Shown here: piece after piece, positions 22,048 to 42,229 of the stretch
How positions within the stretch are numbered: position 1 is the stretch's first letter
How the letters are laid out: every line of letters begins with the position of its first letter
Assembly: GCA_964628445.1 (NCBI GenBank)
Contig: CAZVOP010000008.1
Location: 5,376-69,375, forward strand
Length of the DNA stretch: 64,000 nt
Origin: an uncultured Pseudobdellovibrionaceae bacterium
Lineage (GTDB): Bacteria; Bdellovibrionota; Bdellovibrionia; Bdellovibrionales; UBA1609
Direction of reading: 5' to 3'
Position numbers and translations under genes: made by a program
The notes under the pieces: model-generated
What the model was told of the DNA's origin: nothing
What the model saw: the letters and a program-made list of their open reading frames with translations, nothing else
Database searches by the model: none

Positions 22048-22104
22048 TTCGCACCGAGTTGGCTCAAGCTTTTCACGGCCCCGTTTTTGAAGTACATATT
22101 CCTC

Positions 22105-22896
22105 ATGGCCAAAATCCGGTTTTTAAAACGATTTCGAGCCCATGCCGTGTCGATTTTATTGGCTATGGCTTGCTCAATTTCGGCCCTCGCTCAAAATACG
22201 GCCTCTTTGAAAGACTATAAGAGTTCGAAGCAAATTCTTCGCTTCGTCGGCACCTATATGATTGCTGGAGGGAGCGGAGAGGAGGCCCCCGCGTCGATGG
22301 TTATAGAAGACGGGAATTTGCGGTTTTTCATGATCTGCTCCTATGGTCAGATCTGCAATATTCCCCAAATTCCATTGAATCAGTTAGACCAAACCGTACG
22401 CAATGACTACTCGGGTGTCGTGAGCGAATACCGCCTGGACGGCGACACTCTTACTTGCCAGATCACGACGCGAGTGAACCGATGGAACCGCGTCGTCCGC
22501 CGCTTGGAATATAAACTTTCGGGCTCCGAACTATCTCTCAACGACACGCAAGTTTTCCAGCGACGCAAATTCTTAGGACGTGCATGGGTCAATGACACCG
22601 AAAGTTCAAAAGGTTACCGTTATGCCCACAACTATAAAGGCCGCTTCGTGAAAGTTTCGGAAAAACCGTTGCCGAGCGCGGAAATGCGCAAAATCAGTGA
22701 TGACCTTGATGTGGTCCGAGCCTGGCTTAAGCGCCGATACAATACGCCGACGGAAACTCAGCATGAAGTGATCGATCTTGCCCCGTTTCAAGAGAAGCAA
22801 GCCAGGAGTCTCCCGCGCAAAAGAAAATCGCAAAACGCGGAGATCCTCCAGTTCCCCGGCACGAAGAACGGCTGCGAGGAAAATCTAATTCCTTAA
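22105..22896 (+). CDS. hypothetical secreted protein
   Basis: ORF with a signal-like segment AVSILLAMACSISALAQN. The ATG at 22105 is preferred over the alternative start at 22087. Confidence 0.5.
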   Translation: MAKIRFLKRFRAHAVSILLAMACSISALAQNTASLKDYKSSKQILRFVGTYMIAGGSGEEAPASMVIEDGNLRFFMICSYGQICNIPQIPLNQLDQTVRNDYSGVVSEYRLDGDTLTCQITTRVNRWNRVVRRLEYKLSGSELSLNDTQVFQRRKFLGRAWVNDTESSKGYRYAHNYKGRFVKVSEKPLPSAEMRKISDDLDVVRAWLKRRYNTPTETQHEVIDLAPFQEKQARSLPRKRKSQNAEILQFPGTKNGCEENLIP

Positions 22897-23127
22897 GTCG
22901 TGCTACCGGTATTTTTAGAGGGGTGGCCGAGGTACTCAGTCTGCTGCTTTTTGCGGCAAATTCCCCCAGGATCACCGACGTGGAGAAGGATGCCTCGTGG
23001 GTCTGGGCGGCCGTCGTAGATGGGGATCTCGCCAAGGCTTCGGAGTTCGGCATCGATCCGCTCACGCGGAGCCTTTAACGCACCGTTTAGCCGCTACGGC
23101 AGTGATTCAAAAACTTCAATTCAATCG

Positions 23128-23156
23128 TTGCCAGGACCGCGTATTTTCAATAGATT
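23128..23156 (+). promoter_or_regulatory. candidate sigma70-type promoter for tRNA-Asp
   Basis: TTGCCA, a 17-nt spacer, then TAGATT, ending 22 nt upstream of the tRNA 5' end. Confidence 0.35.
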
Positions 23157-23178
23157 GCGTGGTTCCGATACGTGATGC

Positions 23179-23255
23179 GGGGTGGTAGTTAAGTTGGTTA
23201 TAACGTCCGCCTGTCACGCGGAAGGCCGCGGGTTCGAGTCCCGTCCACCCCGCCA
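23179..23255 (+). tRNA. tRNA-Asp (anticodon GTC)
   Basis: Manual cloverleaf: GGGGTGG-TA-GTTA-AGTTGGTTA-TAAC-G-TCCGC-CTGTCAC-GCGGA-AGGCC-GCGGG-TTCGAGT-CCCGT-CCACCCC-G-CCA. It is colinear with E. coli tRNA-Asp and has an encoded CCA. Confidence 0.95.
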
Positions 23256-23402
23256 TTTCAGATCCTAGAGGTCTGGTCACCTTTCGGTTCCCCAAAATCT
23301 TACATTCTGTTGTGTTGTTCGCCTCCGGCGAACGTGTTCGCGCTTTTGCGCTCACGCTCCCGTTGGTCGCGTTTGATTTACCTTCGGCGCCGAAGGTGTT
23401 GG
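23248..23402 (+). repeat. 155-bp direct repeat, copy A (last 8 nt of tRNA-Asp plus a hairpin-rich downstream element)
   Basis: Aligns by eye with 34129-34283 with 4 mismatches. It contains hairpins GTTCGCC-tcc-GGCGAAC (23317-23333) and GCGC-tttt-GCGC, and the ACCTTCGGCGCCGAAGGT palindrome (23379-23398). Confidence 0.9.
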
Positions 23403-23426
23403 GGTGGACGGGACTCGAACCCGCGG
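23401..23426 (-). repeat. inverted 26-nt copy of the tRNA-Asp T-arm/acceptor 3' half
   Basis: GGGGTGGACGGGACTCGAACCCGCGG is the exact reverse complement of 23226-23251. No complete cloverleaf surrounds it. Confidence 0.9.
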
Positions 23427-23498
23427 GTGAGGGGGAGTGGCAGCCCCGCCAATTTTCCCTCAACGGGAAACGATTTTTCGGTTCAGCCAATCCCAGGT

Positions 23499-24050
23499 TC
23501 AGTAAGTCAAGAACGTCAGGTGATCATTTTCACTCATAATATTTGGTTTGCGACAGAAGTTCTGAGGCATTTTGAGAAAACACCACAAGATTGTTTCTTC
23601 TATGACGTTCAAAGTGATGGCGATGTAAGAGGCATAGTATCAAGAGGCACTTCGCCGAGAAGCGATACGTTTAATTCGCTTAGAGGAAAGATCAACACTC
23701 TGATCCAGGCAGCTGGCCCAGCCACGGGAGAAGTTCAGCAAGCCCTTGTTGAAAAGGGCTACGATCATCTTCGCAGCCTATGTGAAGTGGTTGTTGAAAC
23801 AGATCTTCTCCAGGGCGTCACCAAGAGGTATCAGCCGAATGTTCGGATGACCGTCCTCGACAAGATAAGGTGCGATCGACTTCCGACCGCTATCGAAGCG
23901 ATTCAGCCTGTATTTGATAAGTGCTGCAGACAAATAGCGGCACATTCTCAACCGCTTGAGACTTTAAATGTGAGAGCCAATCTCACAGATTTAAAAGCTG
24001 ATTTTGCCGCCGTATCTTCGGCAAGGGACCTGTATCTCAATGGAAAATAA
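23499..24050 (+). pseudogene. 5'-truncated AAA_13/PrrC-RloC-like ABC-type ATPase (C-terminal ~180 aa only)
   Basis: The frame reads QVIIFTHNIWFATEV (a D-loop/H-loop-like block of AAA_13 ATPases) followed by a C-terminal helical region. Upstream, the same frame runs through repeat and tRNA-derived DNA. No Walker A is present. Confidence 0.5.
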
Positions 24051-24203
24051 GGAGCACTGAATCTGAGATTAGAAGTCTCTTAAGGCGATCTATTGACGGC
24101 AGATCGATTATGAATTAGCGTGACCTTACTCCATTTGGTTGGGGTATTTAGCCATTTGCTTGGCAACAAACTGAACTTAAAAAATTTAATAACGGAGAAT
24201 GAG

Positions 24204-24827
24204 ATGGATAAATCTGCCATTAAGGCGGCGATCGATGCTCAATCCAAGTTGATGGACTCAATTCCCATCGACGAGGCATTGGTGTCGGAAATTGACCGTC
24301 ATATTAAGGATACTGAAAACCAATTAAACCTGCGGCTGGTCCACATACCGGCAAAGTTCGTCATCCAAAACTTTTTGCCTGAGGTAAGCAAGCGAGGCAC
24401 TTTGCCATCGATTGTAAGCGAAGAAATTTGGGAGAGCTTTCTTTTCGGAAAGAACTGGTTTGCTCAAAAGGCGGTTCATAAGGAGATTTCATTCGACAGA
24501 CACGCGAAAGGTTTCGGCTTCTTTTATACGACTGGAGAGGTCACTTTCGATCTTGGTGTTGTCGAGTGCGACGGAGTGGACTGGTATGTACGAGTTCTCG
24601 AAGACAAACGAGAAACCCATAAACTCACAGGCGCATCTGTGGAGATCAAGTTAACGGCCTTTCAGTATTTGGAGACATTGTTGGCGCAGATCAATGATCA
24701 GGCCCACCTGATCGCCGATAAGTATCGCGCTGATCTCACAAGAGATGCTCTCGAAGGACATACCGGTATGCAAGTTATCGGAGGATGGAATCGTTTTTTT
24801 AGCACGGACCCATCCCAGATGCCATAA
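24204..24827 (+). CDS. hypothetical protein
   Basis: ORF with a GGAGA RBS before ATG 24204 and a terminator downstream. No recognisable family. Confidence 0.5.
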   Translation: MDKSAIKAAIDAQSKLMDSIPIDEALVSEIDRHIKDTENQLNLRLVHIPAKFVIQNFLPEVSKRGTLPSIVSEEIWESFLFGKNWFAQKAVHKEISFDRHAKGFGFFYTTGEVTFDLGVVECDGVDWYVRVLEDKRETHKLTGASVEIKLTAFQYLETLLAQINDQAHLIADKYRADLTRDALEGHTGMQVIGGWNRFFSTDPSQMP

Positions 24828-24840
24828 TTGTTAGAATGAC

Positions 24841-24869
24841 GGGCGGGGCTTATGCTCCGCCCACTTTTT
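24841..24869 (+). terminator. intrinsic terminator
   Basis: GGGCGGGG-cttatg-CTCCGCCC hairpin followed by ACTTTTT. Confidence 0.6.
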
Positions 24870-24902
24870 CAGAAGAACATTTGGGATGGCACGATGGGTT
24901 AG

Positions 24903-25012
24903 GGCTAGTTAGCCTGGTTACAAAAGCCAGAAATCGCCTGAAATCACTCGACGTCACGAAATGGCTGACTTAGCCCAATATCAGACCTAAATATTCGGAA
25001 CTACAAGAGCTG
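24903..25012 (+). repeat. ~110-bp direct repeat, copy 1 (flanks the DUF2235 cassette)
   Basis: Aligns by eye with 26118-26227, with many substitutions in the middle. Long exact blocks are GGCTAGTTAGCCTGGTT and GGCTGACTTAGCCCAATATCAGACCTAAATA. Confidence 0.85.
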
Positions 25013-25063
25013 AAGCATCTGACGTTTGCAGAATAAAAAAGAGATACAGAAACAGGATTTTAT

Positions 25064-26077
25064 ATGAAAAAGACAATTTTTATTTTCAATGACGGAACTG
25101 GACAATATTTAAAAAGCGAAGCTGTAACGAATGTTGCAAAACTTTATCGTTGTAGGCCAGGCGAAATTGGCAAGCAGAACTCCGCGGATGAATTCAAAAT
25201 CGATTCATCAAATGGCAATGTTTCGATTTATATCCGTGGAATTGGCACCATTGACAATCGATTCGTGCAAGAACCAAAGGACCAGTCTATCTGGGACAAA
25301 ATTTGTAGTTTATTTTCAACGAAGGCAAGGGAGCTTGGAGAGCAAGTCAGTGGCACCACGATCATTGACAGAGTCCAGCGATCATATGATCTATTCAATG
25401 AGTTCTATGCACATGGCGACGACATTATTTTAGTCGGTTTCAGCAGAGGAGCTGCTTCGATCAGGATATTGGCTTCTGAGTTGGTCAAACGTCACAATGT
25501 TAATATCAAATATATGCTAGTTTTTGACACAGTTTACTCTGTCATGGGCCAAATCAAAATCTTAGACAATGCCCCAACCGATCGTTTCGCAGATTTTGAT
25601 TTATCGCCGAAAATTCTTCAATGTGATCATTTAATTGCAGGAGATGAGATGAGGGAGAAATTTCCGATCTCGCCAATTAACAAACGTGAAGGGGTTCGTC
25701 AGGTTCTATTCGCAGGGTCACACTCTGATGTCGGGGGCGGACATTCCGCATGTGGTTTGTCCGATATAAGTCTCTCTTTCGCTTTGGAGCAGTTGCGATC
25801 ATATGGCTACGACTCCGATGCAAAAGCTCTTGCAAGTTTGAATGTCGCACCAAACATTCAACAAGAAATAACTTTTGTTGTATTGGGAGGAACCGGCCAA
25901 AGACATTTCCCCAGAAAATTGCAAGAACTGGAATTCGTTGTACATCGCTCGGTCATAGATCGTTCAGCCATAAGAGGAGCTGTTTCGATCGCTTTGGCTC
26001 AGCTTAGTACTTTTACGACGAAATCTGGGGATGAACTGGTCAATCCAAAGGATATTGACTCAAGCTTTGATTTATAG
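25064..26077 (+). CDS. DUF2235 alpha/beta hydrolase (T6SS Tle1-like phospholipase family)
   Basis: IFIFNDGTGQ N-terminus, GFSRGAASIR nucleophile elbow, and the FAGSHSDVGGGH block typical of DUF2235. Confidence 0.8.
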   Translation: MKKTIFIFNDGTGQYLKSEAVTNVAKLYRCRPGEIGKQNSADEFKIDSSNGNVSIYIRGIGTIDNRFVQEPKDQSIWDKICSLFSTKARELGEQVSGTTIIDRVQRSYDLFNEFYAHGDDIILVGFSRGAASIRILASELVKRHNVNIKYMLVFDTVYSVMGQIKILDNAPTDRFADFDLSPKILQCDHLIAGDEMREKFPISPINKREGVRQVLFAGSHSDVGGGHSACGLSDISLSFALEQLRSYGYDSDAKALASLNVAPNIQQEITFVVLGGTGQRHFPRKLQELEFVVHRSVIDRSAIRGAVSIALAQLSTFTTKSGDELVNPKDIDSSFDL

Positions 26078-26117
26078 CTCGAACGCACTAATTGGCTTGG
26101 ATAGCATGATGTATCAA

Positions 26118-26227
26118 GGCTAGTTAGCCTGGTTGCAAAAATGAATGTCACCCAAGATCACCCGACGTCACACGTTTGGCTGACTTAGCCCAATATCAGA
26201 CCTAAATAATCGGAATTACAGGTGCTG
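26118..26227 (+). repeat. ~110-bp direct repeat, copy 2
   Basis: See 24903-25012. This copy directly abuts the tRNA-3'-end copy at 26229. Confidence 0.85.
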
Positions 26228-26228
26228 T

Positions 26229-26244
26229 GTCCACCCCGCCATTT
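26229..26244 (+). repeat. direct 16-nt copy of the tRNA-Asp 3' end plus flank (att-like)
   Basis: GTCCACCCCGCCATTT is identical to 23243-23258. Confidence 0.8.
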
Positions 26245-26458
26245 ATTCAAATCGGTCACACCAACAAACATTGAAAACGGCTTTTTGAAGTCATAACGGA
26301 GACTTCCGTTTTCAATTCGCGGGTTCGATAATGGGGCTAAAGTCGTCCATTCGACTCCGTCAAAACTTCCGACACTCCTGATATCGGGAATACCTGTTTA
26401 CCCGTATACCGGATATCCGAATGAAAACCCTTACTTAGACTGGGTCGATATCTACGGC

Positions 26459-27223
26459 TCATCTAGAATAGATGAATTCCTTGGCCTTCTGTGCAACCCC
26501 TTCGGCTCCTCCGAACAGATGATATCCATCAATATTCATCATTTCCAGATCCCTAAAGGCTTCTCGAATGACGGATTCAGGAAACTCAATCTTAATGAGT
26601 AAACTCTTTTGAATTTCATCAATTTTATCCGAGAGGGAAGGTTCTAGAGATAAATCCAGTAAAAAAATACTCTTCTGCATCAAGGGACGCTCAAAAAAAG
26701 GAGCAGGTTTTATGGGAAGGGGTGGAAACTTTCTGGAAGATCTGATGAGGCTTATAAAAAGTTTATTTTTCAAATTCGTGATCTGTCCTCCAAGAGTGTG
26801 GAGATCCGAGTAATTTTCGCCGAGCTTTTTCTTATACTGTTCGAGATTGAGGGCAAAGAGGGTCTTTGAGGCTAGGGAGTAGCGAGTAAAGTAGGTGGCA
26901 ATATAGGGCGAGAACGTCCAGTCGAGCAAACGCGTGGGACACCCATGATGTTGCATGATTTGCATAACATCGATCCACGTAAGATCGGTAGGAGCGTTGA
27001 TTTTCGTGTAGGCAATACTGTCCCTAAAGTAGTTGAGTGCCTTAAATTCAATATCCGGCCAATTGCTTTCCTGAATGTTTTGGTGGAAAAGATGACGATA
27101 TAGCGAGGATGAAAGATCAAATTTGGAATCTGCATGTCCTCTCCAAATGAATTCACCCTCAGAATTTAATTGGTCAATGAGAGATTTAACATGTGACCAT
27201 TTATCAAGAACATAGGTTTCCAT
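26459..27223 (-). CDS. FRG domain protein
   Basis: FIWRGHADSKFDLSSSLYR and MQHHGCPTRLLDWTFSPYIATYF match the FRG domain signature (FRGq...; HyG.pTrlLDwT). Confidence 0.8.
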   Translation of the reverse strand: METYVLDKWSHVKSLIDQLNSEGEFIWRGHADSKFDLSSSLYRHLFHQNIQESNWPDIEFKALNYFRDSIAYTKINAPTDLTWIDVMQIMQHHGCPTRLLDWTFSPYIATYFTRYSLASKTLFALNLEQYKKKLGENYSDLHTLGGQITNLKNKLFISLIRSSRKFPPLPIKPAPFFERPLMQKSIFLLDLSLEPSLSDKIDEIQKSLLIKIEFPESVIREAFRDLEMMNIDGYHLFGGAEGVAQKAKEFIYSR

Positions 27224-27274
27224 ACTGGATTCTAGGAATCCAAATCAAATGAAGTCAAACAGTGGGTAGGCAAA

Positions 27275-27952
27275 ATGCGTAAAGAAATCGAAATTTTAAG
27301 AAATGAAGTCGAAACGGCTTTAAGGAGTTGCCTTGCTCTAAATCAATTCAAGAGATCATTGGGCTGTGAGGAGTGCACTGAAAAGATAAATGAGAACATA
27401 TATTTTTGGATGGTCTTCGAACGATCAGTTCAAGCAAGTATGTTTATTGGGCTTAGAAGACTATTTGAAAACGAAAATGACACTTTTAATTTTCAAATGA
27501 TGATAAACCTATTTCGGGCAAATATAGGGGAATTTTCTAAGAGCTCTTTGCGCCAGAGAAAAATTGAGGGGTCTGCAAATGCTAGTGAATGGATTGATCG
27601 CTACATGGACGACGCGCATGAAGCAACTGAGGACGATTTCTGCCGGCTCTCGAGGCTTGCAAAAAGCAAGAACAAGCAAATAAAAGAAATATCTATTAAA
27701 ATCGCCAGTAAGGTTTATGCACACGCGATTCATGATGACCGAGAAATTTCTAATGAATTGATGAGCGACCTAAAGATTTCCGATGTCGAAGATGCGCTGA
27801 ATGCGATTTGGCATGTGTATCAGCAAATTTGGCAAATGTATGAAAACGGGCGAAGTCCTGAAATGGAAATTGGAAAGTACCCTTATGAGAAAGAGATTGT
27901 TGATGCCGTTTCAAAGCAGATTGGATGCACTTGCCTAAAGACTGATGCCTGA
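27275..27952 (+). CDS. hypothetical protein (helical), divergent from the FRG gene
   Basis: 225-aa ORF in AT-rich DNA. I cannot place a convincing HEPN Rx4-6H motif. Confidence 0.5.
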   Translation: MRKEIEILRNEVETALRSCLALNQFKRSLGCEECTEKINENIYFWMVFERSVQASMFIGLRRLFENENDTFNFQMMINLFRANIGEFSKSSLRQRKIEGSANASEWIDRYMDDAHEATEDDFCRLSRLAKSKNKQIKEISIKIASKVYAHAIHDDREISNELMSDLKISDVEDALNAIWHVYQQIWQMYENGRSPEMEIGKYPYEKEIVDAVSKQIGCTCLKTDA

Positions 27953-28575
27953 GTCGATGACTTCTGTGACGCATATAATATTCGAAACAAATAGTTCCAA
28001 ATTTGTCCACTCGACCCCGCCAATTTTCGAAAGCCTGCCGAGAGCAAAATGCCAAAAAGCCAGTAGAGCTTAATAGTTGAAAACACAGTAAGAGGTCGAC
28101 GTTCCACGTTTGAATATTTCTTGAAATGCCTTAAAATGCGCCACATTTACCAACTCAATTGGGCGTGAATTCAAAAGGGGCATCAAATATGGATGAGCCG
28201 CTGAGTTCTTGCATGTCGCAACATTGAATCTGAAACTGCATATTTGGTTCTCAAAACGGCGGCTTTGGCCGCGAGTCCGGAAGGATTTTGTTTAGGATAA
28301 CATGCGAAAATGGTCCTTCTTCAAATTGATATGCAGTCATAGTCCGACCATTGAGCGCAGACGCATAGTCTCTGTCCGTGTAATCAACTAGTCTGCCAGA
28401 GAAGGATTTTCCAATATTTGAGAAAGCAGTTTCTCTGTGCCGCGTTTGAAAGGACAAGGATCTAGTGCATAGTTGACTTTTGACTTACGGAAAGAAAGGT
28501 CTAAACTCGATTCAGCTTGGGTTTTGGCAGAGGGGAAGTAAGTGTTCAAATTCAGTCCTGATATGATAAGCGCAG

Positions 28576-30192
28576 CTAGCTGACAGTTTTTCTTTCACCT
28601 TTGACTCGGAAAAACATTTCCTCCTTAACTACGACGTTGACACCTGGCAAATGCTTTTTGAACGTGGATTCCATTTCCGTTCTTAGTTCCTGCTTTTTGG
28701 ACGATAAATATTCTGCTTCAGCTTGAATCAGAATGGCATCATGCATCGGTAAGATAATCTTAACCGGAAATTTTTCCGCTATAGAAATTATCGACTCTTT
28801 TAAAATATACGAAGCAGTACCCTGAATTATTTGATTTACGGCCCATCTCCGCTCTGCGGGAGAAAGTTTCCCAGTATGTTTTCTATACCGGCGGTTTCCG
28901 TTTATTGAGGCGGAATATCCCTGAGTTTCCATCTCTCGCCAAACTCGTTCCTTCCACCGTGTAATTTCATGGAACTGACTAAATAGCTTTTCAAATATAG
29001 TTGTCGATTCGACTCTTGATTTTCCAAGAAGTTCAGATAGAAAACCGACAAGGCCATCCTTTTCCATCCCAAATGAAAAGGCCAGGAAAACTACTTTAAA
29101 TATAGATCGGTACCCCGGCTGTCCCATTATGTCGTTAGCGAGACTTTCGTAAAGATCTCCGGCGTTGCAAAGGTCTTTTAGATACTGATCATTAGAAATA
29201 GACGCTAGGATCGCCGGCTCAAAGCAAGAATAGTCAAAATAGATAAATTGCTTTCCTGTTTCCGGCACGATGACATCGCGGTGCTCTTTTTTTAGGATCT
29301 GAAGACGCGGATCGTTTACCAGAATTCGTCCTGTTATAGTGCCCATTATATCATAAGTGGGATTAATGTAGTCAGAGCTTGAAAGTGATATATCCAAAAG
29401 TGATCGCCTGGTGCGCTCATCTTTAACTAAATCTAGTATGAGTGAAAATTTAGGATCTAAGTGTTTACGTGCTTTCAAAAAGCTGAAGATATCTGTTTCT
29501 TCACTTAAAATAGATTCGCCAGTTTGGCTCAAATACCTTTTGATTTCTTCGTAAGATGCAGTGGTTCCTTTGAAGCCATGATGAGTACGTAACTCATATA
29601 GTTTTTTGAAGTGGTCAGCCTCTATATTCGAAAGTTTTTCTTCAATTTTAGATTTATCAACTTTTATTCCATCCAGATGCGAGCGAAGAAAAATATTAAA
29701 GGCTTTTATCTCACAGTTTTCAAAGCGTTCCCATTCGCCTCGTTTTTCCAAATCTTTTTTAATCGCAAAATATCGACCGGCTAACCTTTGTAAAAATATT
29801 TGACAGTCACTCTCGTTTAACTGTTTCTTTGAAGAAAAGCCTTTAAGTTGTCTGCATATCGAAAGTAATTCGCTGTAGTCTGCATAGTAATCCTTCAAAA
29901 GCTGATGAAGGCTCCACGGCACATCCGTGCCGAATTCTTTTTTCGGATGTCCAAAGTAGTAATATGCCAGAGACGTAATATCCACGAAGGTTGGATTTAA
30001 TGTCTTAGGTTCAATTTTTTTCTTAAGTAGGCTTCTTTCAATAGAAAAGGTCACAATAGTGCGGTTCTCTTTAGCAAGCCCATTAATATCAGATTTTAAA
30101 AAACCTTCGTTATCGTCATACTGGAAATATCTAAAATCATTTGCTTCAGTGTTGTTTGGGACGGCGATGAGAAATAGTTCAGAATTATTCAT
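28576..30192 (-). CDS. stand-alone family-A DNA polymerase (no 5'-3' exonuclease; DEDD exonuclease motifs not evident)
   Basis: PolA blocks: TGRILVNDPRLQIL, motif A FIYFDYSCFEPAILA, motif B RSIFKVVFLAFSFGM, RRWAVNQIIQGTASYILK, and motif C LPMHDAILIQ. The start overlaps the RT stop (ATGAATAA). Confidence 0.85.
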   Translation of the reverse strand: MNNSELFLIAVPNNTEANDFRYFQYDDNEGFLKSDINGLAKENRTIVTFSIERSLLKKKIEPKTLNPTFVDITSLAYYYFGHPKKEFGTDVPWSLHQLLKDYYADYSELLSICRQLKGFSSKKQLNESDCQIFLQRLAGRYFAIKKDLEKRGEWERFENCEIKAFNIFLRSHLDGIKVDKSKIEEKLSNIEADHFKKLYELRTHHGFKGTTASYEEIKRYLSQTGESILSEETDIFSFLKARKHLDPKFSLILDLVKDERTRRSLLDISLSSSDYINPTYDIMGTITGRILVNDPRLQILKKEHRDVIVPETGKQFIYFDYSCFEPAILASISNDQYLKDLCNAGDLYESLANDIMGQPGYRSIFKVVFLAFSFGMEKDGLVGFLSELLGKSRVESTTIFEKLFSQFHEITRWKERVWREMETQGYSASINGNRRYRKHTGKLSPAERRWAVNQIIQGTASYILKESIISIAEKFPVKIILPMHDAILIQAEAEYLSSKKQELRTEMESTFKKHLPGVNVVVKEEMFFRVKGERKTVS

Positions 30193-31828
30193 AGACCACT
30201 ATCCCGTCATACAGATCTCTAAAATTTGTCTTATCGGGGCCGATAAAATATTGCCCCTGCATTTTTTCTCTAACCCTACCGTATGTTCCTTTAGTCGAGT
30301 GATTTGAATGAGGTGCAATATACTCTCGTATTCCTTGGTTGAAAGGTATTTCATGGACCGAGATCAACATTTGCCGTTGTAACCAAGAGCTTTTGCATGA
30401 TTGGAACTTTTGAAGCAGTTTGGCTTTTTGGTCAGGGTCGCCAAATTTGCCAATATAAAGACTCGCTCCAGCCAGATCGGGAGCCTTCGTCGAGCGTTGA
30501 AGTACCGACAAGGCGTATTTAATCAAGTCGTCATGCTTATGATTCTTCAATATAAATAACGACCAGATTCTGTAGTTCTGCCAACTATAAATTGACTTCG
30601 ATTGCATAACTAAAAAATCTCTTATTTTTCCGAGATGTCCTTCTTCAAGATGTGCGAAGGCTAAGTATTTAATTAGTGAGTCCGTAGATGCTGGTTGATG
30701 CTCCAATTCATTGATTATTTGTTCTGTGAGGCCGGTGAAATAATCATTGGGAATATCTAATTCTTCGCAACTTAATATTCCCTCTATCCTCCGAATCGCG
30801 AATCTGAAACCTCTAGATTGGGTATTGTCATTTTGAACTAGGTTCAATGTATAGTCCCGCAGGTACGGAAGACTTTTTTGAATTAGCTCAAGTGAGCGGG
30901 AGCGCCACATGTTGTCTATCGCTTCCAAGTGCCTGTCTGTATTCATAAATGAATCGGTAATTTTAGATTCCCCAAGAGTTCCAATTTTTGTTTTCGCAGA
31001 ATTTAAATTAAGTCCGATTGCTCTTAAGGTTTCGGAGAGTAATTTTAAGGCTCTCTTCGCTGAGTTTTTGTCATCACATACAATTCTTATATCGTCCATG
31101 TAACGAAAATACTCAAAGCCTGCTTTTTGCATCTCCCGATCAACATAGTCCATTAAAATATTGGCTAAAAATGATGAGGCATCTCTGTTTTGAGGAATGC
31201 CGTTTGTGCCATTGAAACTCCAAAGTTTCATAAAGTCTGTAAGCAGCTCGATTGTCCTTCGGAGCTTAATTTTTTCTGAAGGTGGCGCATTGAGATCTCT
31301 AATCTTAGTTTCTAGGCACCGTTTTAGTTGAGCGATCTGAATATTTTCATAATAATTAAATACGTCTGTTATAAGGATGGTCTTATTGGGAGAAGCCGAA
31401 TGTCGGATAAGCCCTTCAAAAGCCTTAAATTGCTCAACATGATGTTTAAATAGGAATTTATCGTTGCGGGATTGCCCATCATTGTATCGATGGCTAAATG
31501 AATTGTCAGAGAGTAATGGGTCGTAGTAGGGGATTAAATAACTAGTAAGGGCCAAATAAATTAGGCGATCGTAAACATTAGTTTCCAAGCTATATCGTAT
31601 TAGAAAGTCTTTTTTAGGAACATTAAATATTTCAGCTTTTTCTGGAGTGTACACTCCATGATTTTCGTGGATATTTTCATAATAGTATTTACTGATGTCA
31701 TCTCGATTAAGACAGTCCCGAAATCGAATAGGGTCAGGAAACCAATCGTCTTTAAGATCCTCTTTTAAATCGCGAATTGCCTTCGCGATATTTATATCGA
31801 AGCCGCCTAAGCCGATTTCTTTAGTCAT
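30185..31828 (-). CDS. UG/Abi-type (defence-associated) reverse transcriptase with a C-terminal alpha-repeat domain
   Basis: RT motifs ITDVFNYYENI, GIPQNRDASSFLANILM, FRYMDDIRIV (YxDD) and LNLNSAKTKI. These are followed by about 250 aa of helical repeat-like sequence. Confidence 0.9.
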   Translation of the reverse strand: MTKEIGLGGFDINIAKAIRDLKEDLKDDWFPDPIRFRDCLNRDDISKYYYENIHENHGVYTPEKAEIFNVPKKDFLIRYSLETNVYDRLIYLALTSYLIPYYDPLLSDNSFSHRYNDGQSRNDKFLFKHHVEQFKAFEGLIRHSASPNKTILITDVFNYYENIQIAQLKRCLETKIRDLNAPPSEKIKLRRTIELLTDFMKLWSFNGTNGIPQNRDASSFLANILMDYVDREMQKAGFEYFRYMDDIRIVCDDKNSAKRALKLLSETLRAIGLNLNSAKTKIGTLGESKITDSFMNTDRHLEAIDNMWRSRSLELIQKSLPYLRDYTLNLVQNDNTQSRGFRFAIRRIEGILSCEELDIPNDYFTGLTEQIINELEHQPASTDSLIKYLAFAHLEEGHLGKIRDFLVMQSKSIYSWQNYRIWSLFILKNHKHDDLIKYALSVLQRSTKAPDLAGASLYIGKFGDPDQKAKLLQKFQSCKSSWLQRQMLISVHEIPFNQGIREYIAPHSNHSTKGTYGRVREKMQGQYFIGPDKTNFRDLYDGIVVYE

Positions 31829-31864
31829 GAACTTTAAGTCGAGCGCAAGTAGTTAAGAGCAGTT

Positions 31865-32062
31865 CTAAAGAGAGGCATCGAGACCTTCTATAGATTTCGA
31901 TTGTTTTTCATCTTTAGTATGCTTTAAAGGTGGCTGCTCGGAGAAGGCTAAGCGTGTGTTTAAAATTTTCCATTGGGGCCAGTTTCGGATTTCACGAGTA
32001 GAGTCTAAGATTGTTTTAATTGGGTCAATTAACCCTGGGTCTGCATCAGTTTTAGCTGTCAT
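31865..32062 (-). CDS. small hypothetical ORF, translationally coupled to the deaminase gene (could instead be non-coding)
   Basis: 65 aa. The ATG overlaps the deaminase stop (ATGA). No recognisable family. Confidence 0.35.
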   Translation of the reverse strand: MTAKTDADPGLIDPIKTILDSTREIRNWPQWKILNTRLAFSEQPPLKHTKDEKQSKSIEGLDASL

Positions 32063-33606
32063 ATTACTCCTCCATTGCTTAAATCGGACGTTATCAGTGT
32101 TTCTTTTTCTAAATATGAACTCACCACTAATGGCACCCTGACGTTAGCTGATTTTCTATCGAAAACTGTAACCGCGCCAGAGCCCCTGAGTTTTCTCTTT
32201 AATTGATGGCCCATTCCTAACTTCATAGAAAAAAGATCCAAATATCTTCTGGCTGCAACGCCTATGAAATGCTCAAAAGTGACTTCTCCAGAGGAGAGTT
32301 GATTTAAAGAAATTGCATCTCCGTGAAGATTACCTGCTTGGCTTTTGGGGTATGGCTCAACGAACAGGGTTCTTTTAATTCCTGCCTCAACAATATGCTT
32401 TGCACAGTTATGGCAAGGGAAAGTAGTACAGTATATTGTTCCATCCCTGGTAGTTGCACCTATTCTCGTGCTACTTAAGATTGCGGACATTTCAGCATGT
32501 GTCGCACGATTAAATTCAGTGATATCGGTTAAGCCGGTCTCCTCTAGGATTTTCAGCCCTTCGCTTAACAGGTCAGGATCTGGACCGGACTTAAATTTCT
32601 TCATTACATTCAGGACTATTTGATTCTTGCTCTTCTCATTGGGGTCATAACCCAATCTAAAATCTCGCCAATCCTCTTCTGGAGGGGTCGGCCAATAAGG
32701 ACCGCCACCAGAACGGGGCACATCATTGGATCCAAGGCCAATAACATCGCCATGGGCGTTTACTAGAACGGCGCCAACCTGCCTAGATAGATCAGCGGAT
32801 CTAACCGAAAAGGAGTACGCCATATACATCATGTGTTCGTCGAACGTTGGGGTTATATGGGGATTTCCAAAGATAAGGTCTAAAGCTCGAACCAATTGTT
32901 CTCTAATTGCCTTATCGTCCTGAGCGTCGAACTTTAGGAAGAAATCTGACAACTGAAAGGTATCGCGTGTTTGTTGGCCATACGCAGATTCTTCGGAGAT
33001 ATCTTTTTCTATCAGCTCATAAGCCTCGGATTTTTTAATCCCTCGTTTATTGTCTAAAAACTGAATTCGATCCTCTTCCGGTGAGAAGACGCCAATCTGA
33101 TAATATCCAACGCCATAAGTTTCGCGTAAAAGCTTTGATTCTTCAGGGTTTTTTAAAGATCTAAATAGGTAGGCAGTTGCAGCAGGAGTTTTGCCGCGAT
33201 AGCTTTTCACCATTTGAACGGCGTACTTGGCTAGTAAAGACGGACTCTTATAATGTTTTCTTACCTTATTGCCAGCTTCCATCTGAGAATAAATTTCGTT
33301 AAATGGAGAGGCGCTATCGATTTTAAGATTTAGCTTTTGAAAATATTGATGAGAGAAAAAATCACTAAATTTAATTGGCTGAAGTTTATAATCGTACTCT
33401 GTTAGAACTTGGTCCAGGACTGTCTGTATTCTACCCAAATCAGTGCCAGTTGCAGCCACTAATCCAATAAACAATTCGGATTTTGATCCCCCTAAATTTT
33501 GCATGGGCAAAGTATATTTCTCTGAACTTTCTGTGTACAAGTCGATCTTGGGAATTAGAGTAAATTTGATGGAACTTATGATTTTGAGACCCCTGCGCAT
33601 GCACAT
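32059..33606 (-). CDS. anti-phage dCTP deaminase-like protein (N-terminal kinase-like region plus C-terminal dCMP/cytidine deaminase zinc domain)
   Basis: Deaminase signature THAEMSAI...FPCHNCAKHIV (HAE...PCxxC). The N-terminus ELFIGLVAATGTDLGRI resembles the N-terminal module of the described defence dCTP deaminases. The start is uncertain (33606, 33600 or 33504). Confidence 0.75.
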   Translation of the reverse strand: MCMRRGLKIISSIKFTLIPKIDLYTESSEKYTLPMQNLGGSKSELFIGLVAATGTDLGRIQTVLDQVLTEYDYKLQPIKFSDFFSHQYFQKLNLKIDSASPFNEIYSQMEAGNKVRKHYKSPSLLAKYAVQMVKSYRGKTPAATAYLFRSLKNPEESKLLRETYGVGYYQIGVFSPEEDRIQFLDNKRGIKKSEAYELIEKDISEESAYGQQTRDTFQLSDFFLKFDAQDDKAIREQLVRALDLIFGNPHITPTFDEHMMYMAYSFSVRSADLSRQVGAVLVNAHGDVIGLGSNDVPRSGGGPYWPTPPEEDWRDFRLGYDPNEKSKNQIVLNVMKKFKSGPDPDLLSEGLKILEETGLTDITEFNRATHAEMSAILSSTRIGATTRDGTIYCTTFPCHNCAKHIVEAGIKRTLFVEPYPKSQAGNLHGDAISLNQLSSGEVTFEHFIGVAARRYLDLFSMKLGMGHQLKRKLRGSGAVTVFDRKSANVRVPLVVSSYLEKETLITSDLSNGGVI

Positions 33607-34103
33607 TTAGAGGGTTGATGGGGCGACGAGTCGAGAAAGGGCCGATCTGAAAATTTGAATTTAGGAATTGTGAGCCGAACTTGCTAATGACAGTGAGCAA
33701 GTGCTTTGGATAAATTTGGATCTGTGAATGGCCTTTAGCGAGCCACGTAAGCCGACTACATCGGCTTACGAATCCTCGCACTTCGTTTGCGGATGGAAAT
33801 GAATTAGACGGTTCGATATTTCCGAGAGATTGCCATCTTTCAAAGCCGCCTCTCCGAAGAATAAGATCGGTCAATCCGCTCATTAGCGGCATATCCGATG
33901 ATATGCCGTTTGAAAATCCGACACCTAATATAAACGCGTCATTTGCAGAAGATTCGAAAACCATTTGTCGCCTCAAGTTTGGGTGGCAAAATCGGATTTT
34001 CTTAATGATTGATCATCATAACGTCGAGAAAGTCCGATTTGAATGTGATTCAGGGCATTAATCGGACACTGCTCATGGCGACGCCTTATCCGGCAGAGTG
34101 GAG

Positions 34104-34139
34104 AAAGGTTCGATACTCGTCCCATTTGCCCCGCCATTT
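34104..34139 (+). repeat. degenerate tRNA-3'-half-like direct repeat (copy B)
   Basis: AAAGGTTCGATACTCGTCCCATTTGCCCCGCCATTT has a T-loop-like GGTTCGA and ends in CCGCCATTT like the tRNA-Asp end. It is near-identical to 35060-35094. Confidence 0.75.
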
Positions 34140-34283
34140 CAGATTCTAGAGGTCTGGTCACCTTTCGGCTCCCCAAAATCTTACATTCTGTTGTGTTGTT
34201 CGCCTCCGGCGAACGTGTTCGCGCTTTTGCGCTCACGCTCGCTTTGGTCGCGTTTGATTTACCTTCGGCGCCGAAGGTGTTGG
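34129..34283 (+). repeat. 155-bp direct repeat, copy B
   Basis: See 23248-23402. It includes the palindrome at 34260-34279. Confidence 0.9.
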
Positions 34284-34319
34284 AGGGCGGACTCTCCCGT
34301 GCGGTTCTGCTGGAACCTC

Positions 34320-34970
34320 TTATTCCTTCAATGTCGCATTGAAGACCGCCAACTGAGCCGCGAAAGCATTCTGGTAGGCGGGCCGCGCTTCACTGCGAGC
34401 AATATAGGCGCAAAGGTTTGGGTGGTGCTCCAGTAAACCTGATCCGTCTAGTCTGCGCAACACCGTGACCATCAGCAGGTCGCCGGCACTGAATTCGCCG
34501 TCGAGCCATTCGGCGGCACCTAGTCGAGTGGAAAGTTCTTTAAGCCGGACTTGGACGCGCTCATCCAGTAAAGGCAGTCGATCCTTGTGCCAGCTCTTGT
34601 CGCGCTCAAAGAGTGCGCAGACTCCGCGCTCGACAATCGGTGGTTCCATTGTGCTGAGGGCGGAGAACATCCAAGCGATCGCGCGCGCCCGGCCCTTCGG
34701 TTCCGCAGGAAGCAGGCCCGCGTGTGCCTCGGCGATGTGAAGCACGATGGCTCCCGACTCGAACAGCACGAGATCCCCTTCTTGGTAGGTGGGAATTTGC
34801 CCAAATGGATGAAGCGCTCGATACGCGGGCTCTTTCATCTCCTGAAATGAAACAAGACGGACATCGTAGGGCTGTCCCACTTCTTCGAGAGCCCAGCGAA
34901 CGCGCAGATCGCGCGCCAGTCCTCGGCCGCGATCGGGAGAGTTTTTGAAGGCTGTAATTGTGGGAGTCAT
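34320..34970 (-). CDS. glutathione S-transferase
   Basis: Thioredoxin-like N-domain HPFGQIPTYQEGDLVLFESGAIVLHI plus a helical C-domain. Confidence 0.9.
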   Translation of the reverse strand: MTPTITAFKNSPDRGRGLARDLRVRWALEEVGQPYDVRLVSFQEMKEPAYRALHPFGQIPTYQEGDLVLFESGAIVLHIAEAHAGLLPAEPKGRARAIAWMFSALSTMEPPIVERGVCALFERDKSWHKDRLPLLDERVQVRLKELSTRLGAAEWLDGEFSAGDLLMVTVLRRLDGSGLLEHHPNLCAYIARSEARPAYQNAFAAQLAVFNATLKE

Positions 34971-35059
34971 ACGTCATCTCCGGTTTATAGAATGAGCTTA
35001 CCCTTCGAAAACGGTAGCTGGAGATTCGCGAATGGTCATCACTCAAATGACTCGCGGCA

Positions 35060-35094
35060 AAAGGTTCGATACTCGCCCCATTTCCTCCGCCATT
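35060..35094 (+). repeat. degenerate tRNA-3'-half-like direct repeat (copy C)
   Basis: AAAGGTTCGATACTCGCCCCATTTCCTCCGCCATT. Together with copy B it brackets the GST gene. Confidence 0.75.
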
Positions 35095-35244
35095 ATTACT
35101 CCAATAATTTCTGATATTTGGGGTACGTGCTTCAAGGTAATTCATTCAGGTCTCGACCTTAATCTCAAGTAATAAATCTTGCGTAGGGTCCCTATAAATT
35201 CTTAAATATAAACAAAATATATTCTACATAAGGGGAGAGGTAAC

Positions 35245-35505
35245 ATGAAAATTAAAGCAATAAATTATGATCTACAAAATGGTGACATGGATGATTATCA
35301 AGATCTTTTTAAGGCAATAAAGACAATCGGACAGGCTCGTCATGCTCAGGGAAGCTTTTGGCTGGTGAAAACTGACAAAACCTCCGCAGCAATTAGAGAT
35401 CTACTTAAAATTCATTTAAAGCCAGGGGATAAATTGATGATTAGCACTTTTAGTGAGTGGGCTTCCTATCAAATGAATACGACCGCGGAATGGCTGAATG
35501 AATAA
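35245..35505 (+). CDS. small hypothetical protein
   Basis: 86-aa ORF with a GGGGAGAGG RBS, in AT-rich DNA. The pattern (INYDL...DY.DLF..I...G.A.H.QGSFWLV) loosely recalls small ferredoxin-fold proteins. No assignment made. Confidence 0.5.
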   Translation: MKIKAINYDLQNGDMDDYQDLFKAIKTIGQARHAQGSFWLVKTDKTSAAIRDLLKIHLKPGDKLMISTFSEWASYQMNTTAEWLNE

Positions 35506-35653
35506 GTTCTGAGTTTGTTCCATTTAACCAGATCCAGGCTTTTGGCCAGATTAGATCAAAATCATAACTGAATAAAACAAGTCTTCTTTACCTTCGACCA
35601 ACTTGGGTAAACAAATAGCACTATAGGCATCATGGATCAATACTTGGAGAAAA

Positions 35654-36289
35654 ATGAAAGCTCAAAAGTTCAATCTAACCGTCGGTTCAGCTAAGAGAAC
35701 TTTAATCCTTCAAAGGAAAAGTCTATTTGGAAAAATGGGCATATTTCTTGATCAAGAAAAGTTAGCGGACCTTGCGTCCGTGAAGGAGCTTCGAAAGGGA
35801 CAAGAGTTCACTCTGCAAGACGGTTCAACCTTGGTTTTCAAGATGGTGTCGAACCCCTTTCCCGAATTTCAGATTTCCCATAACGGAAACCCGGTCGAAG
35901 GCTCAGCGAATGACAGCGGGACTCGCATACGTACCGCTTACAATTTAATGGCCTTTATTTGCGCCATCAATTTCTTAATTGGAATTATGGCGATCGCCAT
36001 CAAATCGAAAATGCTTTTAGGTCTTGGTTTTGGGCCCTACAATCTCCTGATCGGAACATGTTTTCTTCTCTGCCTTATTTTTAGCAACTCAAAAAAGAGA
36101 TTCACTCCGCTTGCTTTAGGGCTCCTGATTTTCTCCTTGGATACGGTTTTGGCATTGTACAGTGCCTTTGTGATCCTCCATATGTTTCCAAATCCTGGGA
36201 TACTGATTGTGCGCTTTTTCATAATATGGCCATGGTGGAAGGGCGTTCGAGAGGCGTTGAAAGTTAAGCCTCTGCAGGATCCATCTTGA
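35654..36289 (+). CDS. hypothetical membrane protein
   Basis: The C-terminal half has about 4 hydrophobic helices (LMAFICAINFLIGIMAIAI, LLIGTCFLLCLIF, and others). Confidence 0.55.
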   Translation: MKAQKFNLTVGSAKRTLILQRKSLFGKMGIFLDQEKLADLASVKELRKGQEFTLQDGSTLVFKMVSNPFPEFQISHNGNPVEGSANDSGTRIRTAYNLMAFICAINFLIGIMAIAIKSKMLLGLGFGPYNLLIGTCFLLCLIFSNSKKRFTPLALGLLIFSLDTVLALYSAFVILHMFPNPGILIVRFFIIWPWWKGVREALKVKPLQDPS

Positions 36290-36521
36290 CTTGATAGTTC
36301 ATGATTCGCGATACTTAAGGCGCTGGCAGAGGCTCAGTCATTTTATCTGCCCAGTCATCTTAAAGGAGGTGCCCATGAAAACTCAATTCGTTCATCGTGC
36401 AGCCTCCACTCTCCGCTAGGAATAATTCCAAAGACTATTTCGAAAGCGTTCTCGGCACGGCTGCGCACTTATCAATTCTGCTTCAGCTTTCCTGAAGCAG
36501 CAACCAGCCTAGGAGCTTAAG

Positions 36522-37106
36522 GTGAAATTAAGAAGAAAAGAGGTCGGTCCGCGCCGGCTTGTCCTACGACATCTGCGGTCCGACGATTATGAGTTTTGGT
36601 TTGATGCCTATATAAATTGTTTGCCCGTACAGACCAAATGGGATTTGGGCCCAAGGCCTGCACGCCAGTGTTCAAAAGCGATGTTCAAGAGGATCATGAA
36701 GCGGCATCATGATTTAGCTAAAAACGATGATTATTACTGGTTCGGTGTGTTTGAAAAGAAAAGCGGCGAACTGATCGGACATATTGATTTCGATATCTTT
36801 GTTCGAGGCACTCATCAATTCGCAAATTTTGGATACCGAATTTATAACCGGCATTGGGGCAATGGCTTCGGACGAGAAGCCGCAGCAGCAGGCTTGCGAA
36901 TCGGGTTCAGGCAACTCAAGTTGAACCGATTGGAAGCTGCGATCAATCTCGACAATAGAAAATCCATTCGCCTTGCGAAAGCCATTGGAATGCGGAAAGA
37001 GGGGATCAAGAAGAGGTACTGGTTTGAGTATGGAGGGTGGGTCGACCATCTTATCTATGTGGCCAATCCAGAGGACATCGGACTGAGGCCCCGCAAGCCA
37101 TTCTAA
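36522..37106 (+). CDS. GNAT N-acetyltransferase (RimJ/RimL-like)
   Basis: Carries HWGNGFGREAAAAGLRIGF and RLEAAINLDNRKSIRLAKAIGMRKEG blocks. GTG start after an AGGAG RBS. Confidence 0.85.
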   Translation: MKLRRKEVGPRRLVLRHLRSDDYEFWFDAYINCLPVQTKWDLGPRPARQCSKAMFKRIMKRHHDLAKNDDYYWFGVFEKKSGELIGHIDFDIFVRGTHQFANFGYRIYNRHWGNGFGREAAAAGLRIGFRQLKLNRLEAAINLDNRKSIRLAKAIGMRKEGIKKRYWFEYGGWVDHLIYVANPEDIGLRPRKPF

Positions 37107-37128
37107 AAAGAAACTGCGCTTTTTTCCA

Positions 37129-37152
37129 GCTACCTTCGGCGCCGAAGGTAGC
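37129..37152. repeat. 24-bp perfect palindrome GCTACCTTCGGCGCCGAAGGTAGC (family copy, probable bidirectional terminator)
   Basis: Read directly. It lies between the convergent GNAT and CHAD genes. Confidence 0.9.
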
Positions 37153-37158
37153 CGGGTG

Positions 37159-37914
37159 CTATCGGTAAGAGCTATCAATTTTGCGGGTCACTCTTTGAAG
37201 TGTCGGCCCAGCCAATCGAATCGCTGCGGCGGCGAGAGAGGATCGATCGCGCTTCAGAGTGCGTTTCCTCCCGACGAAATGTTGAAGGGTTTCGAGGTCG
37301 TGTGCCTTTCCCAATAGGCTCTGGACGTCTTTCAACGACTCAACGGGCCTCCCAAGAGCCTCAAGTACGTAGCGTGTTTTCTTAATCGCAATGCGAAATT
37401 TGTGAAGCCGCGCACTGCCATGAAGTCGGCGTTTTTGCCAATGGACGATGCTCTTTCGAAGCGTTCCTAATGCAGAGCCCAGTTCGAGTTCATTTTGTGA
37501 ACGGACATCCTTGATGACGGTTGCCATTTCACGGGACAACTTTTGACGTCTCTTCTCTTTCAAGTGGCGGCGCAGAGATTTTACTTTCACTTTACGTTTT
37601 AATTTCAAGCTCAAAGGATCGATCTCATATTTCTTCGCATCCTTGATCGCCATGTCCAACTCGCGGGCGGCCCCAAGCAAATGACCAAGCTTTCGCAGGC
37701 GCTGATCTAATTTGTCAAAGGGTAGGGGAGGCGAGCTATTTTTTAATATCCACAGAACGGCACGACTGCGGCGAACGGCGATTCGGAGTTGATGCACGTC
37801 AGGCCGGGAAGCGTTGCTAAATACTTTCAGCCCAAGCTCACTCAGTATGACCCGTTGAGCTTTAAAGTATTTGAGCAAGTGGACAGTGCTTCGATTCATA
37901 TCAGAACGGGTCAC
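37159..37914 (-). CDS. CHAD domain protein
   Basis: Repeated HQLRIAVRRSRAVL and HKFRIAIKKTRYVLE motifs are typical of CHAD. Confidence 0.8.
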   Translation of the reverse strand: MTRSDMNRSTVHLLKYFKAQRVILSELGLKVFSNASRPDVHQLRIAVRRSRAVLWILKNSSPPLPFDKLDQRLRKLGHLLGAARELDMAIKDAKKYEIDPLSLKLKRKVKVKSLRRHLKEKRRQKLSREMATVIKDVRSQNELELGSALGTLRKSIVHWQKRRLHGSARLHKFRIAIKKTRYVLEALGRPVESLKDVQSLLGKAHDLETLQHFVGRKRTLKRDRSSLAAAAIRLAGPTLQRVTRKIDSSYR

Positions 37915-37925
37915 GCTGAAGTTTA

Positions 37926-38384: not shown

Positions 38385-38528
38385 AGCGCGCTCCTTTAAG
38401 GTAAAGATATTGGTTGTTGTGTGGAGGGCGCGGTAGGGTTTCCACATGTAAAACGAAAATCTTGTGATTCATAATTCCGCTCCTCAACGCCCTTTAGGTA
38501 TAGCAAAAGAGATGCCCGCATTTAGTTT

Positions 38529-38546
38529 GCCTTCGGCGCCGAGGGT
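38529..38546. repeat. imperfect copy of the palindrome family (GCCTTCGGCGCCGAGGGT)
   Basis: Read directly, in a divergent intergenic region. Confidence 0.7.
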
Positions 38547-38628
38547 GCATCGGGACTGAACTTTGCATCAACAGCCGCCGTTGCATGAGTGGGCCTTCGG
38601 GGACCGGCCCATCTAAGCAGGAGGAATT

Positions 38629-39636: not shown

Positions 39637-39676
39637 AAAATTACTTAAGATTGTTTTCGGCGCCATGTGGCGTTTA

Positions 39677-42228: not shown

Positions 42229-42229
42229 C

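Follow-up and report, generated by a model that had tools for sequence, protein, structure and literature searches.

Layers of a probable composite defence island at the tRNA-Asp gene of an uncultured Pseudobdellovibrionaceae bacterium

Introduction

What lies behind the tRNA-Asp gene of an uncultured Pseudobdellovibrionaceae bacterium, and how did it come to be there? We analysed a 64,000-nt stretch of its genome, hereafter the window (assembly GCA_964628445.1, contig CAZVOP010000008.1, positions 5,376 to 69,375; G000:C8:5376-69375 in our labels, where G000 is this genome, a 3.35-Mb draft of 150 contigs). The DNA from 23256 to about 36450 of the window, directly 3' of the tRNA gene, is probably a composite accessory island of ~13 kb, mostly devoted to defence, which grew by serial insertions at a single-tRNA-Asp hot spot and then decayed.

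The initial annotation of this DNA, made from the letters of the window, had proposed repeated site-specific integration into the tRNA 3' end. We confirmed the underlying observation, which is stronger than first reported, and found the interpretation partly supported: serial insertion stands, given where synteny ends and which fossil flanks are preserved, and site-specific recombination is the putative mechanism. tRNA genes were called with ARAGORN and Rfam, domains and families were scanned with Pfam, PADLOC, PHROGs, and NCBIfam, and recombinases were sought by whole-genome searches with the profiles PF00589 (tyrosine) and PF00239 (serine). The comparison set consisted of 18 genomes of the genus, species-level representatives with little synteny between them. 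Exact-protein look-ups of a 269-aa open reading frame (ORF) upstream of the tRNA and of the glutathione S-transferase (GST) of the island returned no conspecific genome.

Copies of the tRNA end mark successive junctions

ARAGORN and Rfam agree with the earlier call of an intact tRNA-Asp ending at 23255, and a genome-wide ARAGORN run identified this copy as the sole tRNA-Asp of the assembly. Seven congeners keep the upstream genes, a PKD lipoprotein and a 225-aa gene, together with the tRNA, and their match to the window breaks off precisely at the CCA (base 23255). The regions 3' of the tRNA in these seven genomes have nearly nothing in common with the window or with each other. None of the seven keeps the same gene order without an indel at tRNA-Asp, the arrangement named beforehand as speaking against insertion; synteny stops at the tRNA end.

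The 16-nt direct copy of the tRNA end that had been reported downstream is exact. GTCCACCCCGCCATTT occurs at 23243 and 26229, with no third copy in the window (0.02 expected) or in the 3.35-Mb genome, and the genome-wide count once suggested as a check on chance matches thus returns two copies only. A shorter core, CCCCGCCAWTT, comprises the final 8 nt of the tRNA and 3 nt of flank; it occurs nine times genome-wide on both strands, and five of the nine are direct copies within 23.2-34.2 kb of the window (0.016 expected; P ~1e-11). When up to three edits were allowed, the tRNA-terminal 18-mer had 14 matches genome-wide, 4 of them in this region. Direct copies of the tRNA end stand at 26229 (the exact 16-mer), 23444, 28005, and 34129, with a variant at 35087. 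Two of these, found by repeat search and direct counts, were new: 23444-23457 is CCCCGCCAATTTTC, and 28005-28028 is the same sequence preceded by GTCCAC-TCGA. The earlier division of the island into three modules is wrong in detail, as it missed both junctions and the repeat unit S1 described below.

The sequence behind each copy tells what once adjoined the tRNA. The junction at 26229 (J3) and the next 86 nt are 87% identical (89/102, E 6e-31) to the tRNA-Asp end and immediate flank of the relative G005, and the J3 flank can also be aligned to the tRNA-Asp flank of G006. In both relatives, tRNA-Asp is joined straight to a flank of the type found at 26245, which is an empty-site-like arrangement for the proximal part of the island only. 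Compared with G005 and G006, the DNA at 23256-26228 is an insert at the tRNA end with the 16-nt direct repeat at its borders. The flank of the junction at 23444 (J2), ATTTTCCC...CAGGTTCAGTAAGT, resembles the sequence directly 3' of tRNA-Asp in G009 and G015. This homology ends where a fragment of a PDC-S06 candidate-defence gene starts, which points to a later internal deletion; the first gene had already been described as truncated, and by PADLOC profile coverage it has lost ~670 N-terminal residues. Taken together, the junctions support repeated insertion of foreign DNA at the tRNA-Asp 3' end.

The composition of the region agrees with the earlier description of AT-rich DNA. The modules at 23458-34103 and 35095-36450 have a GC content of 0.40-0.46, below the 1st-3rd percentile of 1-kb windows, compared with a genome value of 0.521 (standard deviation 0.03 in 1-kb windows). 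Five 5-kb windows with GC <0.43 exist in the genome, three of them in this island. GC-rich sequence (0.57-0.59) makes up the S1 units and the GST block.

A pseudo-3'-half of the tRNA may be an old distal border

The two degenerate copies of the tRNA 3' half noted earlier at 34104 and 35060 (J5 and J6, our series B) exist, being 91% identical to each other over 35 nt (34104-34138 against 35060-35094); their earlier role as attachment-site (att) scars of single modules is less likely, since they form a conserved, separate pseudo-3'-half and are not products of random decay. Both share a 5-nt insertion and identical substitutions relative to the tRNA. The series-B 20-mer at J5 is TCGTCCCATTTGCCCCGCCA, lies 10.9 kb past tRNA-Asp, and has S1 after it. 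An identical 20-mer followed by S1 lies 56.7 kb past tRNA-Asp in G001, and in G016 the corresponding sequence, TCGCCCCATTTGCCCTGCCA (a 0-mismatch pattern match), is again followed by S1 and again 10.9 kb past tRNA-Asp. In G001 and G016 alike, tRNA-Asp and its series-B copy share one contig and one strand. Matches with two mismatches in G004, G011, G012, G013, and G017 look spurious: no S1 comes after them, and they apparently fall in coding sequence.

Since the same pseudo-half and trailer are found 3' of tRNA-Asp in G001 and G016, they are better read as an old common distal border than as fresh att scars. The arrangement suggests that the series-B pseudo-half with its S1 trailer is a displaced old tRNA-Asp 3' end, a border older than the cargo that it now delimits.

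S1 is a repeat family of tRNA trailers

The sequence past 34139, formerly taken as unique flank, proved to be a tRNA-trailer repeat, S1. A direct repeat of 165 nt, 23238-23402 against 34119-34283, is 95% identical overall and 97% identical over the 147 nt past the CCA. We built a model of S1 (R1) from 23256-23372 and its relatives; it is sequence-only, since RNAalifold missed the middle hairpin owing to gap placement. The model gave 33 matches in 7 of the 18 genomes, with 16 copies, some of them arrayed, in G001. Eighteen of the 32 distinct matches start within ~10 nt of an intact tRNA's CCA, and the tRNAs concerned fall into at least 11 kinds (Val, four Leu isoacceptors, Phe, Met, Asn, Thr, Gly, and Asp); the remaining matches mostly stand behind a short pseudo-tRNA end (...CCA). 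By eye, the middle hairpin keeps its position while its sequence is fully different between copies (GTTCGCC/GGCGAAC vs GGCCTGC/GCAGGCC).

At several loci, S1 is followed by an inverted 3' half of the cognate tRNA, a conserved purine-rich linker, and a direct copy of the last 8-11 nt of the tRNA. This order was seen with Asp here, with Val in G009, and with Leu-CAG and Asp in G001. Other S1 copies lack the inverted half, so the feature is not obligatory. The inverted half, the linker, and the short direct tRNA end together look like a 'mini-tRNA' made up of an acceptor stem and a T arm (e.g., loci L078, L085, L101, and L102). Rfam contains no known RNA family that matches S1 or the island leader. 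The palindrome ACCTTCGGCGCCGAAGGT at 23380-23397 and 34261-34278, together with some adjoining bases, belongs to a dispersed repeat similar to repetitive extragenic palindromes (REP) and occurs on at least 10 other contigs of the genome.

The cargo consists of known and candidate defence genes

The features of the island are collected in Table 1. By its gene families, the cargo is a cluster of several known or candidate defence genes, that is, a predicted defence island. The reverse transcriptase (RT) and the PolA-type polymerase both give full-length profile matches, and their genes overlap by 8 nt. The two nearest relatives of the RT, at 55-57% identity, keep PolA and have no deaminase, tRNA, or integrase nearby; a scan for related loci with the RT alone gave no match. 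Since neither a tRNA nor an integrase lies near these two homologues, the link between the RT module and tRNA-Asp does not recur elsewhere. The homologues also have PolA without a deaminase, and the dCTP deaminase is therefore probably a neighbouring system beside the UG9 RT-PolA pair, not its third subunit; the RT-PolA-deaminase operon of the initial annotation is replaced by two known systems side by side. The GST is an accessory gene in the genus, with its best genus homologue only 44% identical; as it is not a core gene, the GST block is of no help as a native right flank.

On either side of the Tle1-like gene are direct repeats of ~130 nt (24884-25012 and 26099-26227). Within them, at 24930-25000 and 26140-26215, TCAC(C/A)C occurs three times at intervals of ~11 nt and is followed by two or three copies of TGGCTA/GGGCTA. 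The TCACCC/TGGCTA motif is also found ~90-190 nt past tRNA-Asp in G009, G015, G016, and G007 (L025, L027, L028, and L030), and it could hold arm-type or operator sites.

Table 1. Features of the tRNA-Asp island, with coordinates in the window
Feature	Coordinates	Strand	Basis
tRNA-Asp(GTC), intact, CCA encoded; island anchor	23179-23255	+	ARAGORN; Rfam tRNA, 72 bits
S1 copy A, hairpin-rich, ending in REP-like palindrome ACCTTCGGCGCCGAAGGT	23256-23400	+	97% to 34140-34283
Inverted perfect copy of the 3'-terminal 26 nt of the tRNA body (T arm and acceptor 3' strand, without GCCA)	23401-23426	-	Repeat search, 100%
Junction J2: CCCCGCCA with flank ATTTTCCC...CAGGTTCAGTAAGT	23444-23501	+	Repeat search; flank resembles G009/G015 tRNA-Asp flank
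PDC-S06 candidate-defence gene, C-terminal fragment (profile 674-849 of 851)	23502-24050	+	PADLOC PDLC04888, E 9.8e-37
235-aa ORF, no family	24120-24827	+	No match in Pfam, PADLOC, PHROGs, NCBIfam
Direct repeat copy 1, TCACCC/TGGCTA motif	24884-25012	+	Repeat search
Tle1-like/DUF2235 hydrolase gene	25064-26077	+	Pfam PF09994, E 1.1e-32
Direct repeat copy 2, 83-92% to copy 1, abutting J3	26099-26227	+	Repeat search
Junction J3: exact tRNA-end 16-mer with 86 nt of ancestral native flank	26229-26330	+	89/102 vs G005; aligned with G005, G006
Tentative third series-B copy, 12-nt insert	26318-26361	+	By eye; core alignment just 14/20, weak
FRG-domain gene, PADLOC candidate PDC-S15	26459-27223	-	Pfam PF08867, E 2.3e-18; PADLOC, E 4.6e-36
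HEPN AbiU2-like gene	27275-27952	+	Pfam PF18734, E 5.5e-13
Junction J4: GTCCAC-TCGA-CCCCGCCAATTTTC	28005-28028	+	Repeat search, motif counts
RT-associated family-A DNA polymerase	28576-30192	-	PADLOC RTasPolA, E 1.7e-115, 385 bits; Pfam DNA_pol_A
UG9-type defence-associated RT, small variant	30185-31828	-	PADLOC RT_UG9_small, 613 bits
dCTP-deaminase-type defence gene	32059-33606	-	PADLOC dCTPase, 496 bits; Pfam dCMP_cyt_deam_1
Junction J5: tRNA-Asp pseudo-3'-half TCGYCCCATTTSCYCYGCCA, series B	34104-34139	+	Repeat search; counterparts in G001, G016
S1 copy B (34140-34283) with degenerate inverted tRNA half (34284-34306)	34140-34306	+	Repeat search, S1 model
GST gene, GC-rich block (0.57)	34320-34970	-	Pfam GST_N
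Junction J6: second series-B copy, 91% to J5, without S1 trailer	35060-35094	+	Repeat search, alignment
AT-rich tail, GC 0.407: phrog_1090 ORF and 211-aa ORF without family match	35095-36450	+	GC
86-aa ORF, phage family phrog_1090	35245-35505	+	PHROGs, E 9.2e-18

Recombinases and the right border among relatives

As had been noted for the window, no tyrosine or serine recombinase accompanies the island: the whole-genome searches gave no PF00589 match on the contig of the window and no PF00239 match anywhere in the assembly, and the Pfam, PHROGs, and NCBIfam scans found no recombinase among the island ORFs. Recombinases do occur behind tRNA-Asp in relatives. A divergent tyrosine integrase of 448 aa begins 57 nt past tRNA-Asp in G001 (PF00589, 31.8 bits; L023:8696-10042, contig C7), a resolvase lies ~570 nt past it in G016, and XRE regulators follow it in G009 and G015. 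With the integrase 57 nt after the tRNA and a series-B/S1 array 56.7 kb on, tRNA-Asp of G001 may carry a large element that is still intact. The enzymes of G001 and G016 were considered as candidates acting in trans and rejected: the present genome has no homologue of either. The initial annotation had advised a genome-wide search for integrases with tRNA-Asp specificity; the only tRNA-adjacent integrase of the genome adjoins tRNA-Ser.

On the right side, a 20-kb DNA query returned only scattered single-gene matches, none of them syntenic; the DUF5996 protein encoded there is missing from the 18 relatives, and the right sides of G016 and G001 have nothing in common with the window. With DUF5996 absent and synteny lacking, the accessory region may extend past 36.45 kb. 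The genes at 36451-52700 (GNAT, CHAD, CBS, DUF5996, and several without a family) have near-normal GC.

Other parts of the genome also look foreign. Upstream of the tRNA, 1.1 kb (22048-23178), including the 269-aa ORF, which has no family, separates it from the 225-aa gene. The spacing in relatives is only ~100 nt, which indicates a separate insertion 5' of the tRNA. The gene at 52737-56132, which encodes 1131 aa with TPR repeats and DUF2971, has a GC of 0.403 (0.5th percentile) and strong GC skew, and forms a second foreign-looking block of the window. The only other very low-GC stretches of the genome are contig C108 (5.9 kb, 0.357), which carries a weak integrase-like ORF, and C6:12.5-24.5 kb (0.414), which ends at the integrase adjoining tRNA-Ser(GCT).

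Discussion

The junctions can be arranged into a sequence of events. Separate insertions would each have left a direct copy of the last 8-16 nt of the tRNA, with the core CCCCGCCAWTT, and each copy would precede whatever adjoined the tRNA when that insertion happened. The oldest recognisable layer would be the pseudo-3'-half with its S1 trailer (34104-34283). The DNA carrying the FRG, AbiU2-like, UG9 RT-PolA, and dCTP-deaminase genes would then have come to lie between this series-B border and the ancestral flank at 26229-26330. A later element of 2.8 kb (23452-26228), with the PDC-S06 gene now truncated, a gene without a family, and the Tle1-like cassette, would have entered the tRNA end, and the final insertion would be the 188-nt S1 unit (23256-23443). 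Later decay included the deletion of ~670 PDC-S06 codons and the loss of any recombinase gene. Integrases that came with the incoming elements or acted in trans would have carried out the crossover, at the very 3' terminus of the tRNA gene, and the present remnant would be immobile. Crossover at this position is reportedly among the tRNA-gene sublocation classes of tyrosine integrases that K. P. Williams set out in Nucleic Acids Res. in 2002.

Several observations weigh against this history. We saw neither an integrase nor an excisionase nor a circular form, and both the site-specific integrase mechanism and the order of events are what we infer from the junctions. The blocks of identity span just 8-16 nt and leave the T loop outside, and a second exact tRNA-end copy near tRNA-Asp is absent from every other genus genome. 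An empty site for the whole island was found in no sampled relative of the genus, including the expected joining of the tRNA to the 34.3- or 35.1-kb flank; the right flank is nowhere syntenic, so the right border at ~36.45 kb is placed by GC alone. The junctions are known from one assembled contig of a 150-contig draft. Moreover, the S1 unit indicates that tRNA-end copies can arise in the genus without island integration. Finally, the two S1 copies are 97% identical, but the tRNA-like arms beside them are 100% and ~65% tRNA-like, respectively, which simple accretion would not predict; this disparity hints at gene conversion in S1 or at a single crossover there.

The main rival is distinctly less probable than serial integration, and it dispenses with a dedicated integrase. 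Homologous recombination would turn over the DNA between two anchors, tRNA-Asp on the left and the pseudo-3'-half with S1 on the right, with entry either through a double crossover or through Campbell-type integration of S1-bearing circles by a single crossover; the tRNA-end remnants would be old scars, some of them imported from donors. Both anchors are indeed kept in the present genome, G016, and G001 while everything between them differs, and the 165-nt repeat of 95-97% identity brackets exactly 10.9 kb, as a single S1 crossover would leave. A double crossover, however, does not generate directly repeated tRNA ends, of which there are several with differing flanks, and a core of 8-16 nt is less than RecA needs to recombine DNA efficiently. 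The flanks of the remnants at 23444 and 26229 are typical of different species, which suits donor import, and the tRNA-Asp contigs examined from seven relatives gave no integrase-family match whether or not foreign DNA was present; against this stand the recombinases at tRNA-Asp in G001 and G016. Such turnover may well explain the arrival of the present cargo, but it leaves the multiple short direct repeats unaccounted for. It is improbable that the tRNA-end copies are by-products of local S1/mini-tRNA duplication, with the foreign genes having entered by illegitimate recombination. A ...CCA end precedes S1 in nearly all 32 distinct matches, G001 and G009 have arrays of pseudo-tRNA ends with S1 outside any island, and the window junctions J0 and J5 have S1 after them; J2, J3, J4, and J6, however, do not, J3 precedes ancestral native tRNA-Asp flank, and the junctions coincide with changes in gene content and with the truncated gene. 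A 150-contig draft containing a 165-nt repeat might also be suspected of chance matches or of a chimeric metagenome contig joined at repeats. We regard this as very improbable, as the repeat counts lie far beyond chance expectation, independent genomes contain homologues of the junction flanks, and the S1 copies differ at four positions within one contig.

Serial insertion at tRNA-Asp also accords with what is known of tRNA-anchored islands: the insert starts right past the tRNA 3' end, direct repeats of the tRNA end are present, the composition is atypical, the content varies among relatives, and the distal copies are more degenerate. It differs from them in lacking an integrase, in identity blocks of just 8-16 nt, and in the reuse of a second att-like series, the pseudo-3'-half. 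As in hot-spot defence islands, PDC-S06, PDC-S15, an AbiU2-like HEPN gene, a UG9 RT-PolA pair, and a dCTP deaminase are clustered; unlike them, the island belongs to a Bdellovibrio-like host, includes one truncated system, and is known from its genes alone. The pair resembles the UG9 type of defence-associated reverse transcriptases (DRT) in the end-to-end RT_UG9_small match and in the adjoining, overlapping RTasPolA gene, and it differs in having a dCTP-deaminase gene upstream. The passages of PMC9226505 that deal with UG9 describe this RT as paired with PolA and enriched in defence islands, and treat it as a predicted defence gene, not a validated one. Single genes bracketed by direct repeats (Tle1-like and GST) are reminiscent of integron or cassette arrays, but the repeats here are ~130 nt or 35 nt long and no IntI-type integrase accompanies them. 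The integron reading was rejected, with no IntI and no tyrosine recombinase on the contig of the window.

S1 itself raises a further idea, which we hold to be doubtful. At ~110-150 nt, it might be a short element, mobile or copy-pasted, with tRNA 3' ends as its target, and might thereby seed or redirect island accretion. If so, S1 insertions would make extra att-like tRNA ends, such as those at 23444 and 34104. To our knowledge, no described bacterial element targets tRNA 3' ends and leaves a 'mini-tRNA' in this way. The S1/mini-tRNA repeat family is an unusual by-product of the analysis and the part that deserves more work.

The island itself is an ordinary decayed, tRNA-anchored composite defence island and offers no new principle. 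Its value is as a layered example of how a tRNA hot spot gathers anti-phage genes and then erodes them, in a lineage of predatory bacteria that has been little studied for defence. Its att-like scars are, moreover, datable, as what follows a given scar can be set against the present-day tRNA flank of sister species.

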